Assembly: GCF_057098645.1 (NCBI RefSeq) | Contig: NZ_CM169472.1 | Direction: 5' to 3' (one strand) | DNA length: 64,000 nt | In this document: in pieces, positions 39,001 to 42,000 of the stretch | How positions within the stretch are numbered: the first letter of the stretch is position 1 | Layout of the letters: each line of letters starts with the position of its first letter | Program-made: the position numbers

Positions 39001-42000
39001 TCAGGCCAGAAAAGTAATCGGCGGTATACGGGAAGGCAGGCATTGGCTGGTCAACATCACCGTTCTGAATCAGGTAACCACTGAAGGCCTGGGCGATGGT
39101 GTTATAGGCCGGAAGATTGGTGTACTCCTCGGTGCCGTACTGACCAAAACCGGACAGGTGAGCGATAACCAGTTTCGGGTTGTGCTGCCACAGTACTTCA
39201 TCGGTAATGCCACGACGGGCAAAGGCCGGACCTTTACTGGCTTCGATGAAGATATCGGTGGTTTCCATTAATTTCAGAAACGCTTCGCGGCCTTCATCTT
39301 TGAAAATATTTAACGACAGCGCGTGCAAATTGCGGCGGGAGAGTTGCGGGTAGTTCGGTTGAACGCGAATGGTGTCGGCCCAGGCGACGTTCTCGATCCA
39401 GATAACTTCCGCACCCCATTCTGCGAACATTTGCCCGGCGAACGGCCCGGCAATTTCGATACCGGAGAAGACAACGCGCAATCCGGCCAACGGCCCGAAT
39501 TTCGGCATGGGTAGATGATCCATTATTAGCTCCTGAAAAATTTATGTAGCGCATGACTGCCGGATGCGGCGTAAACGCCTTATCCGGCCTACATTCGTGC
39601 TCCCGTAGGCCTGATAAGACGCGTCAGCGTCGCATCAGGCAGCGCACGGACTTAGCGGTATTGCTTCAGCACCGCACGACCCAGCGTCAGGATCTGCATT
39701 TCGTCAGATCCTCCGGAAACGCGGTCTACACGCAGGTCACGCCAGAAGCGGCTGATGCGGTGGTTGCCCGCAATCCCGACACCGCCCAGCACCTGCATTG
39801 CGCTATCCACCACTTCAAATGCCGCATTGGCGCAGAAGTATTTGCACATCGCTGCATCGCCAGAGGTGATGGTGCCGTTGTCTGCTTTCCACGCTGCTTC
39901 ATACAGCATGTTTTTCATGGAGTTTAATTTGATCGCCATGTGGGCGAATTTTTCCTGAATCAACTGGAAACGACCAATAGCCTCGCCAAACTGCACGCGC
40001 TGGTTGGCGTAGCGCGCCGCATCTTCAAAGGCGCACATCGCCGTACCGTAGTTGGTCAGGGCTACCAGGAAACGTTCATGGTCGAACTCTTCTTTGACGC
40101 GGTTAAAGCCGTTACCTTCCCGACCGAACATGTCTTTCTCGTCCAGTTCCACATCGTCAAAGGTGATTTCACAGCAGCTATCCATACGCAGACCGAGCTT
40201 CTCAAGTTTGGTCACTTTGATGCCCGGTTTGTTCATATCAACAAACCATTCGGTGTAGACAGGTTTGTCCGGAGAAGCCCCGTCGCGCGCCATCACCACG
40301 ATGTACGGGGTGTAGGCGCTACTGGTAATAAAACACTTACTACCATTAAGATAAATCTTACCATTTCTACGGGTATAAGTCGTTTTCAGGCTACCCACGT
40401 CGGAGCCCGCGCCCGGTTCGGTAATCGCTGAGTTCCACATCTGCTTACCGGTGCCGCGGAAAGCCATAATCTTGTCGATCTGCTCTTGTGTGCCTTCGCG
40501 CAGGAAGGTATTGAACCCGCCCGGCAGCTGGTACAGTACATAGGTTGGTGCCCCCAGACGTCCCAGCTCCATCCACACGGCGGCGAGAGTAACAAACCCC
40601 GCGTCCAGACCACCGTGCTCTTCAGGGATCAGCAGACTGTCGATACCCATATCCGCCAGTGCTTTGACAAAACGTTCCGGGTAGACGCTGTCACGGTCGC
40701 ACTCGGCAAAATAGGCCTCCCAGTTTTCGCTGGCCATCAGTTCGCGGATACCGGCGACAAACAGTTCCTGCTCATCATTTAAATTAAAATCCATCTTTCA
40801 ACCTCTTGATATTTTGGGGGTTAATTAATCTTTCCAGTTCTGTTTCGCGTCTTTAATAAAGGAGAGCGTCACCATAATGTTGACGAAGAACAGCGGGCAT
40901 CCTCCGGCGATAATGGCAGTTTGAATCGGTTTCAGGCCGCCGAGCGCCAGCAAAACAATACCGATAATGCCAACCAGAATTGACCAACCGATACGCACCA
41001 GCAGCGGTGGTTCTTCACCATCGCGTACTTCGCGGCAAGTGGACATCGCCAGGGTATAAGAGCAGGCGTTAACCAGCGTAACGGTGGCAATAAAGCAGAG
41101 GATGAAGAAGCCCCACATGGTGGCGGTGCTGAGTGGCAGAGCGGCCCAGGTTTCGATAATGGCGCGCGCCACACCGTACTGTTCGATCAGATTTGGAATG
41201 TTGATGATGTTTTTATCTATCAACAGCAGAGTGTTACTACCGAGTACAGTCCACAGGATCCAGGTTGACGCTGTCAGTCCCAGCACCATGCCGAAGCACA
41301 GTTCACGCACAGTACGACCACGGGAGATGCGGGCGAGGAAGATACTCATCTGGATGGCGTAAATCACCCACCATGCCCAATAGAACACGGTCCAGCCCTG
41401 CGGGAAGCCGCCTTTAGCGATGGGATCGGTATAGAACAACATTCGCGGCAGATACATCAGCAACATCCCCACCGAATCGGTGAAGTAGTTCATGATGAAG
41501 CTGGCACCGCTGACAATGAACACCCAACCCAGCATCAGGAAGCTCAGGTAACTACGCACGTCACTGGCGATACGTACCCCTTTTTGCAGACCGCAGGCGA
41601 CGCAAATGGCGTTGAGGATAATCCAGCAGGTAATGATGATAGCGTCCAGTTGCAAGGTATGCGGAATGCCAAACAACCATTGCATACACTCGGTCACCAG
41701 CGGCGTGGCAAGGCCCAGACTGGTACCCATCGCGAAGATCAAGGCGACGAGATAGAAGTTGTCGACGATGGTACCGAACAACCCTTTGGCGTGTTTTTCA
41801 CCTACCAGCGGCACCAGTGTCGAGCTGGGGCGAATCACTTCCATTTTGCGGACAAAGAAGAAGTAAGCGAAGGCGACTGAAAGGAAGCTGTAAGTGGCCC
41901 ACGGCAGAGGTCCCCAGTGGAAAAAGCTGTAAGCCAGCCCCAACTCTTTCGCTCCTGTCGAGTTCGGTTCTAAGCCAAACGGCGGGGTGGAGATGTAGTA

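Follow-up and report, generated by a model that had tools for sequence, protein, structure and literature searches.

A catalogued REP pair between caiA and caiB on an O157:H7-type Escherichia coli chromosome: its architecture, natural variation and possible roles

Repetitive extragenic palindromic (REP) sequences, and the bacterial interspersed mosaic elements (BIMEs) into which they combine, have been described since the 1980s. We report the analysis of one such element, which lies inside the caiTABCDE operon between caiA and caiB, together with the other REP sequences of a 64,000-nucleotide (nt) stretch of NCBI RefSeq contig NZ_CM169472.1 (assembly GCF_057098645.1); the whole of this stretch is referred to below as the window and its first letter as position 1. 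The window belongs to an E. coli O157:H7-type chromosome: a 601-nt query taken around the caiA-caiB element is 100% identical to many O157:H7 chromosomes, and in the matching records the same 601 nt lie under caiA and caiB. A first-pass annotation had placed REP/BIME clusters at three intergenic sites of the window, between yaaX and yaaA, between lspA and fkpB and between caiB and caiA. Alignment to annotated K-12 and the O157 annotation agree on the gene names at all three, and every REP/BIME site described here lies between annotated genes.

Both cai genes are read from the minus strand, with caiA (crotonobetainyl-CoA reductase, 39652-40794) as the upstream and caiB (carnitine CoA-transferase, 38306-39523) as the downstream gene of the operon, and the spacer between them is 128 nt long. 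It holds two REPs, at 39558-39592 and 39605-39641, both of which fall inside the interval 39555-39645 for which the cluster had been claimed. The first is a y-type REP, TGCCGGATGCGGCGTAAACGCCTTATCCGGCCTAC, which is 100% identical to a published REP query and has its GTAG foot on the minus strand; this is the mRNA strand of the operon, and the transcript reads GTAGGCCGGATAAGGCGTTTACGCCGCATCCGGCA. The second is a long Z (z2-type) REP, GTAGGCCTGATAAGACGCGTCAGCGTCGCATCAGGCA, whose GTAG foot lies on the plus strand and which appears in the cai mRNA in the inverted form UGCCUGAUG...GGCCUAC as the first hairpin after caiA. Their GTAG/CTAC feet are joined by a short (S-type) linker of 12 nt at 39593-39604, ATTCGTGCTCCC, or GGGAGCACGAAT in mRNA sense. 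On the minus strand a spacer of 10 nt (39642-39651) separates the caiA UAA (39654-39652) from the Z REP, and the first paired base of the Z hairpin is G39640, which leaves a gap of 11 nt after the stop codon. At the other end 34 nt (39524-39557, minus strand) lead from the y REP to the caiB ATG (39523-39521) and contain the caiB ribosome-binding site CAGGAG, in a tail that is also present in other Escherichia, in Citrobacter and in Salmonella. Written in mRNA sense, the spacer runs from the caiA UAA through GUCCGUGCGC, UGCCUGAUGCGACGCUGACGCGUCUUAUCAGGCCUAC, GGGAGCACGAAU and GUAGGCCGGAUAAGGCGUUUACGCCGCAUCCGGCA to these 34 nt with CAGGAG and the caiB AUG.

As RNA, the Z and y REPs are predicted to form hairpins of -21.4 and -20.9 kcal/mol respectively, and an alternative fold spans both REPs in one inter-REP hairpin of -46 kcal/mol; the DNA hairpins of the REP units are predicted at -11.6 and -12.2 kcal/mol. 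The stems carry mismatches, GGATAAGGCG against CGCCGCATCC in the y REP and GATAAGACGC against GCGTCGCATC in the Z REP, which appear as internal loops in the folds, and it is because the stems are imperfect that an inverted-repeat scan did not report the REPs. A scan of 39300-39900 found neither promoter-like sites nor terminator-like sites (a stem with a U tract); the closest run of U (UUUUU) sits 20 nt past the y hairpin, so that no U tract is adjacent to it.

The E. coli REP has been described as an imperfect palindrome of 30-40 nt with a conserved GTAG 5' of its foot and a mismatch in its stem, occurring in the types y, z1 and z2, and the BIME as a REP that a linker joins to an inverted REP (Ton-Hoang et al. 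2012, PMC3333891, from whose restatement the Gilson/Bachellier nomenclature is taken here). The caiA-caiB units are imperfect palindromes of 35-37 nt that both show the GTAG foot and the stem mismatch, and they form an inverse pair with a linker. With up to 2 mismatches allowed, the 64 kb contain 4 copies of the foot motif GTAGGCCKGATAAGNCG, where shuffles lead one to expect 0.03, and all four copies are at the yaaX-yaaA and caiA-caiB sites, where each of the four canonical units starts GTAGGCC(G/T)GATAAG. Three REP queries taken from PMC11208160 gave full-length blastn-short matches at these four units only, with identities of 94-100%: 357-393 (long Z, 100%), 428-462 (y, 94%), 39558-39592 (y, 100%) and 39604-39640 (long Z, 97%). 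A strict REP regular expression likewise found the four canonical units only, and a degenerate REP between caiF and caiE, described below, escaped it. The pattern search that had been proposed as a check of the annotation thus returned canonical units in agreement with the REP consensus, and not an absence of matches to it. At megablast stringency the 601-nt query matched 5425 of 5426 E. coli genomes at a median of at least 31 places per genome; the caiA-caiB element is therefore a high-copy repeat.

BIMEs are divided into BIME-1, which combines z1 and y REPs across a long, conserved L linker and occurs in single copy, and BIME-2, in which z2 and y REPs are joined by a short S linker and occur in tandem copies (PMC3333891). 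The cai Z unit is letter for letter the Z unit of the K-12 sucB-sucC BIME-2, and the cai linker matches the linker of that element, GGGACCACCAAT, at 10 of 12 bases. Because of these two resemblances we classify the cai element, on its sequence, as a single unit of BIME-2 type; the label z2 comes from the comparison with sucB-sucC and from a secondary source, in which the K-12 sucB-sucC element is cited as a BIME-2 composed of y and z2 REPs. The cai element shares with BIME-2 the inverse y and long Z REPs, the 12-nt short linker, its extragenic position between tandem genes and its high copy number. It differs from the tandem BIME-2 arrays with their s/l/r flanking motifs in that it is one unit in all of the sampled E. 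coli genomes, and in that its K-12 orthologue has no detected gyrase cleavage.

The pair may also be compared with mobile elements. As in REPINs and their RAYTs, and in the sub-terminal hairpins of IS200/IS605, the inverted cai REPs can fold as one long hairpin (-46 kcal/mol), and as in these systems they carry a GTAG guide tetranucleotide of the type recognised by a Y1 HUH transposase; in contrast to them, the window does not hold the transposase gene. Binding by TnpA(REP) has been reported to need non-complementary stem bases (AA opposite GC; PMC3333891), and the sequence features reported as necessary for TnpA(REP) binding and cleavage (PMC3333891, PMC3479197) occur in the caiA-caiB REPs.

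Of the 5426 complete E. coli genomes, 5331 have the caiA-caiB locus. Among 58 genomes that were sampled, about 10 have an element 11 nt shorter, its linker being a single G (1 nt), and some of these 1-nt-linker alleles are also mutated at single positions of GTAG or CTAC; the alleles show no compensatory changes. A further allele, in strain JNEC-KY180, has an annotated IS621 transposase gene between caiA and caiB (3300-4600 of the locus record). IS621 is a bridge-RNA recombinase element of the IS110 family. Its natural target is ATCAGGCCTAC, and 144 of 173 mapped experimental insertion sites were in REP elements (PMC11208160). In the window this 11-mer occurs in exactly 2 copies, one per Z REP, against 0 expected; the cai copy lies at 39605-39615 on the minus strand, with its CT core at 39607-39608. 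The junctions in JNEC-KY180 place IS621 exactly at the CT core of the Z-REP target, and the core dinucleotide flanks the insertion on each side. JNEC-KY180 is a clinical isolate, and its cai operon is split by the insertion.

To extend the comparison beyond E. coli, loci of CaiB relatives were collected from 80 species, and 79 of these yielded a caiA-caiB spacer. In E. albertii the site is made up of three units; in a divergent Escherichia lineage, which is labelled E. coli, it has 3.5, mostly of short Z units with a 1-nt linker; we assign this array-bearing locus to a divergent lineage because its flanks are only about 94% identical. Both arrays are built mainly from short Z units, and the 3.5-unit array was not found in the 5426 complete E. 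coli genomes. Across Escherichia lineages the unit number ranges from 1 to 3.5, and the allelic states seen at this site are linkers of 12 nt or 1 nt, unit numbers in that range and the IS621 insertion. In Salmonella arizonae and diarizonae, Citrobacter and Pseudocitrobacter the spot is taken by REP pairs with a sequence type of their own, sometimes in reverse order, and in Proteus, Providencia, Edwardsiella, Hafnia, Shewanella and others by hairpins that are unrelated to REPs. In all, 80% of the 79 caiA-caiB spacers are more stably folded than their shuffles (z < -2).

The comparison with K-12 that had been suggested for the three annotated sites found each of them in a published K-12 BIME table (Sutormin et al., PMC6379681, Table DS3). 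That table gives a BIME-1 at K-12 5566-5670, which corresponds to 358-462 of the window, and its second list contains K-12 25711-25796 (lspA-fkpB), 34728-34763 (caiF-caiE, as a REP), 39152-39233 (caiA-caiB, 39560-39641 of the window) and 50328-50364 (folA-apaH). The copies of the K-12 records NC_000913.3 and NC_007779.1 that were used have no REP features at the sites. The K-12 orthologue of the caiA-caiB element differs from it by 3 single-nucleotide polymorphisms, and the element is an ordinary, catalogued E. coli REP pair (BIME) with nothing new about it. Of the five REP sites that K-12 has in this region, two differ in the O157-type strain: that between lspA and fkpB has decayed, and that between folA and apaH has been replaced by ccdAB. 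K-12 has a folA-apaH spacer of 77 nt with a REP; the window instead carries at 50716-51351 two open reading frames and no REP. These reading frames (50801-51034 and 51037-51351) have Pfam matches to CcdA (E = 1e-26) and to CcdB (E = 5e-31) and are by these matches a chromosomal toxin-antitoxin pair. The coordinate offset to K-12 also shifts by ~5.6 kb between the yaaX-yaaA and lspA-fkpB sites, and there is therefore net extra DNA relative to K-12 at about 500-26000 of the window.

Between the convergent genes yaaX and yaaA, where a cluster had been placed at 330-465, we find a genuine BIME at 356-462. Its long Z REP (356-392) is 100% identical to the published long Z query and carries the GTAG foot on the minus strand. 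A long (L-type) linker of 35 nt (393-427) leads from it to a y REP (428-462), whose GTAG foot lies on the plus strand and which is 94% identical to the published y query and one stem base off the consensus (ATCTGGCA). The Z unit is of the long form (36 nt), one base off the z2-type unit of cai, and also carries the IS621 target, at 382-392. A single REP pair and a long, conserved and repeated linker give the element the look of BIME-1 (RIP, RIB), under which it is listed in the K-12 table; it is atypical in length, with 104 bp for the K-12 element against 96-98 bp for the majority of the 78 BIME-1 entries of that table, the excess of 7 bp being the difference between a long and a short Z. Because of the long form of the Z unit and this length, the element is probably a chimera under the strict z1 and y rule. 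On the minus strand the Rfam family ES036 (RF02751) passes its gathering score at 385-427 (38.8 bits against 37.6), the matched stretch being the long linker of the BIME; since copies of this linker recur across each E. coli genome (at a median of 17 places), ES036 may describe a repeat motif rather than a single small RNA (sRNA) gene. The linker also contains a one-mismatch match to the consensus of integration host factor (ATTCAATATATTG, 403-415), of a kind that numbers 65 in the window against 58 expected, which is the chance level. To the left of the BIME, at 331-351 on the plus strand, lies a small hairpin (TGCCGGGTAACAATCCGGCAT), identical in K-12, that we read as a y-REP remnant without its tip; when it is aligned to the Rfam naRNA4 model, the first hairpin of the model fits it with a deletion of 14 model positions.

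The lspA-fkpB site, which had been annotated at 26153-26203 as classical REP palindromes, does contain the strings concerned, but as two truncated stumps and not as a classical REP pair: the stumps match the published REP queries over 12-13 nt only. The decayed BIME occupies 26154-26203 on the plus strand, with stumps of 17 nt each at 26154-26170 (TGCCGGATAAGGCCTAC) and 26187-26203 (GTAGGCCGCATCCGGCA) on either side of the original 16-nt linker, now a loop (26171-26186). The GTAG/CTAC feet beside the linker are kept and the hairpin tips are lost. The remnant folds as a single hairpin with arms of 17 bp that starts 8 nt after the lspA stop, and the minimum free energy fold of the whole spacer, in which a second small stem appears, has an energy of -33.5 kcal/mol. 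At this site K-12 retains both REPs in full, one on either side of the 16-nt linker; in F11-like strains the right REP is short by 18 nt, and the window strain is additionally short of 20 nt of the left REP. Three length alleles are thus common in E. coli: full, right tip-deleted and both tip-deleted. In 60 genomes, drawn at even steps, the three length classes number about 24, 17 and 19. The loss in the right REP is a clean 18-nt deletion between GCCG repeats, and that in the left REP needs 20 nt deleted and two base changes. The short allele could not be derived from the full one by a single clean deletion. Together, the remnants at 26154-26203 and 331-351 suggest that REPs may decay in a regular manner, in which the hairpin tip is lost and the foot is kept.

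All three annotated sites thus hold REP sequence, and a fourth had been overlooked: a degenerate single REP, GCCAGATACGATGTTGTAGCATCTTATCCAGCAACC, which lacks the CTAC foot, lies between the convergent genes caiF and caiE at 35136-35171 on the plus strand. It has GCCAG/CCAGC where the canonical sequence is GCCGG/CCGGC, and it has a fold of -31.3 kcal/mol (z = -3.6). With this addition, and with the lspA-fkpB site corrected to a remnant, the first-pass annotation is confirmed in part as to what was seen, and its REP/BIME interpretation is supported. Just past the caiF-caiE REP, at 35174-35186, lies the fragment GTCGCATCCGGCA. The caiB-caiC spacer (38248-38305, minus strand) contains a hairpin that is not a REP, GGCGUCAGUCGG...CUGACUAACGCC, and the divergent cai-fix control region (42583-42688) contains paired inverted repeats with TTTCAATATTG...CAATATTGAAA, which probably correspond to the CaiF half-sites known from the literature.

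Elsewhere in the window, Rfam matches at gathering level are the sok antitoxin RNA (10343-10495, minus strand, 122 bits), tpke11 (8881-8958, plus strand) and ES003 (29960-30012, plus strand), and a perfect inverted repeat of 17 bp with a 7-nt loop lies at 60195-60235 (GCTAAGGTTGAAGGGGC / GCCCCTTCAACCTTAGC).

The reading that best explains the caiA-caiB element, and to which we give a probability of about 85%, is that of a single BIME unit, with a z2-type Z REP and a y REP set foot to foot across a 12-nt linker, which sits in caiTABCDE and has the roles in mobile DNA and in RNA that its family would lead one to expect. At the DNA level it would be a non-autonomous repeat, the GTAG-footed hairpins of which may serve as TnpA(REP) substrates, as published work on the family implies, and the Z unit of which would be a natural landing site for IS621. 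At the RNA level the cai mRNA would carry the pair either as two hairpins of about -21 kcal/mol each or as one of -46 kcal/mol. Co-transcribed REPs have been reported to block 3'->5' exonucleases and to be able to act as partial Rho-dependent terminators, an intercistronic REP has been described as a dual terminator and stabiliser, and intercistronic REPs in tandem gene pairs go with an expression ratio biased to the upstream gene genome-wide. By analogy, the hairpins most likely block 3'->5' exonucleases, which would shield the upstream caiT-caiA segment, and most likely also attenuate some of the transcription into caiBCDE, in part via Rho. According to a secondary account (PMC12306157), REPs that start less than 16 nt from a stop codon can reduce the translation of the upstream gene; because the cai hairpin begins less than 15 nt past the stop codon, it may also slow the termination of caiA translation. 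The position of the element suits all three effects, the exonuclease block, the attenuation and the effect on translation, and the net outcome would be a tuning of CaiT/CaiA output relative to CaiB-E. The nearest parallels are REP325 (yjdM-yjdN) and other intercistronic REPs such as that of nrdA-nrdB, in which, as in cai, REP hairpins lie inside an operon just past the upstream stop codon and have no U tract, and by comparison with which the cai element would form a barrier to decay and, with Rho, a partial attenuator. REP325, which has six units and has been tested experimentally, showed Rho dependence only when its array was complete; cai differs in having a single unit, with a role that is proposed by analogy.

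Several observations weigh against this account of the element, at least as far as its effects on the cai operon are concerned. REP effects have been reported to be context-dependent, and REP-bearing genes show no general difference in half-life. A stabilised caiA mRNA and a braked caiA translation pull the yield of CaiA in opposite ways. The caiB-caiC spacer, taken as a control, is structured in 65% of 68 species; a structured spacer is therefore not special to caiA-caiB, and hairpins between cai genes are general. Natural strains tolerate deletion of the linker, mutations in GTAG and an insertion sequence in the caiA-caiB element, and its sister element between lspA and fkpB has decayed in the very strain of the window. 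The absence of Topo-Seq gyrase cleavage sites (0) from the K-12 orthologue weighs, for its part, against a role as a gyrase site.

The tolerated damage and the decay at lspA-fkpB would fit a largely neutral passenger, that is, a REP pair that has been spread and kept by TnpA(REP) in a tolerant spacer and that has no selected effect on cai. We give this alternative substantial weight, because REP effects are context-dependent and the alleles tolerate substantial damage, though on balance we doubt it. It would account for the polymorphisms of linker and foot and for the tolerated IS621 insertion, for the loss of both REP tips at lspA-fkpB in this strain and the coexistence of three alleles there at high frequency, for the REP remnants at 331-351 and 35136-35171, for the variation of REP effects genome-wide and for the lack of compensatory changes among the caiA-caiB alleles. 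It is opposed by the stable hairpin that follows directly after caiA in 80% of 79 species, including those in which it is not a REP (Proteus, Providencia, Edwardsiella), by the genome-wide link between intercistronic REPs and upstream-biased expression, and by the distance of less than 15 nt from the stop codon, which suits the reported translational class. One might also suppose that the caiA-caiB spacer is a long-lived, selected hairpin slot across the Enterobacterales, the resident of which has repeatedly been replaced by each lineage's current REP type and the alleles of which are strain-specific settings of CaiT/CaiA against CaiB-E; this we regard as speculative and unlikely.

Still less probable is an architectural role for the DNA, in which gyrase binding and cleavage of BIME-2 type would relieve the supercoiling caused by cai and fix transcription. 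The y and z2 composition is that of BIME-2, a class reported to be enriched in gyrase cleavage, mainly in its y REPs; yet the cai element is a single unit with no tandem array, and its K-12 orthologue, like the other four K-12 intervals listed above, gave no gyrase cleavage site (0) under any of four Topo-Seq conditions, whereas multi-unit BIME-2s such as the sucB-sucC entry have 4-6 in three of the four (PMC6379681). We all but discount an independent sRNA gene (of the naRNA4 or ES036 kind) or an intrinsic terminator that ends the caiTA transcript, which the naRNA4 match to the cai pair (RF02564, derived from REP325; E = 1e-6) and the passing score of ES036 on the yaaX-yaaA linker might suggest: the naRNA4 match, at 42.8 bits against a gathering score of 59.5, reflects shared REP sequence and not membership of the family, the scan of 39300-39900 was negative for promoter and terminator alike, on which ground both an independent gene and an intrinsic terminator are rejected, the nearest U run lies 20 nt beyond the second hairpin, and caiB-E follow downstream in the same operon with no promoter of their own in the scan.

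Returning to the single BIME unit with family-like roles, its significance beyond correct annotation is small, the copies being already in the K-12 lists. Annotations should treat the caiA-caiB element as a BIME and not as a terminator or an sRNA gene, and the Z REPs, as landing sites for IS621, are relevant to strain typing and to work on bridge recombinases.

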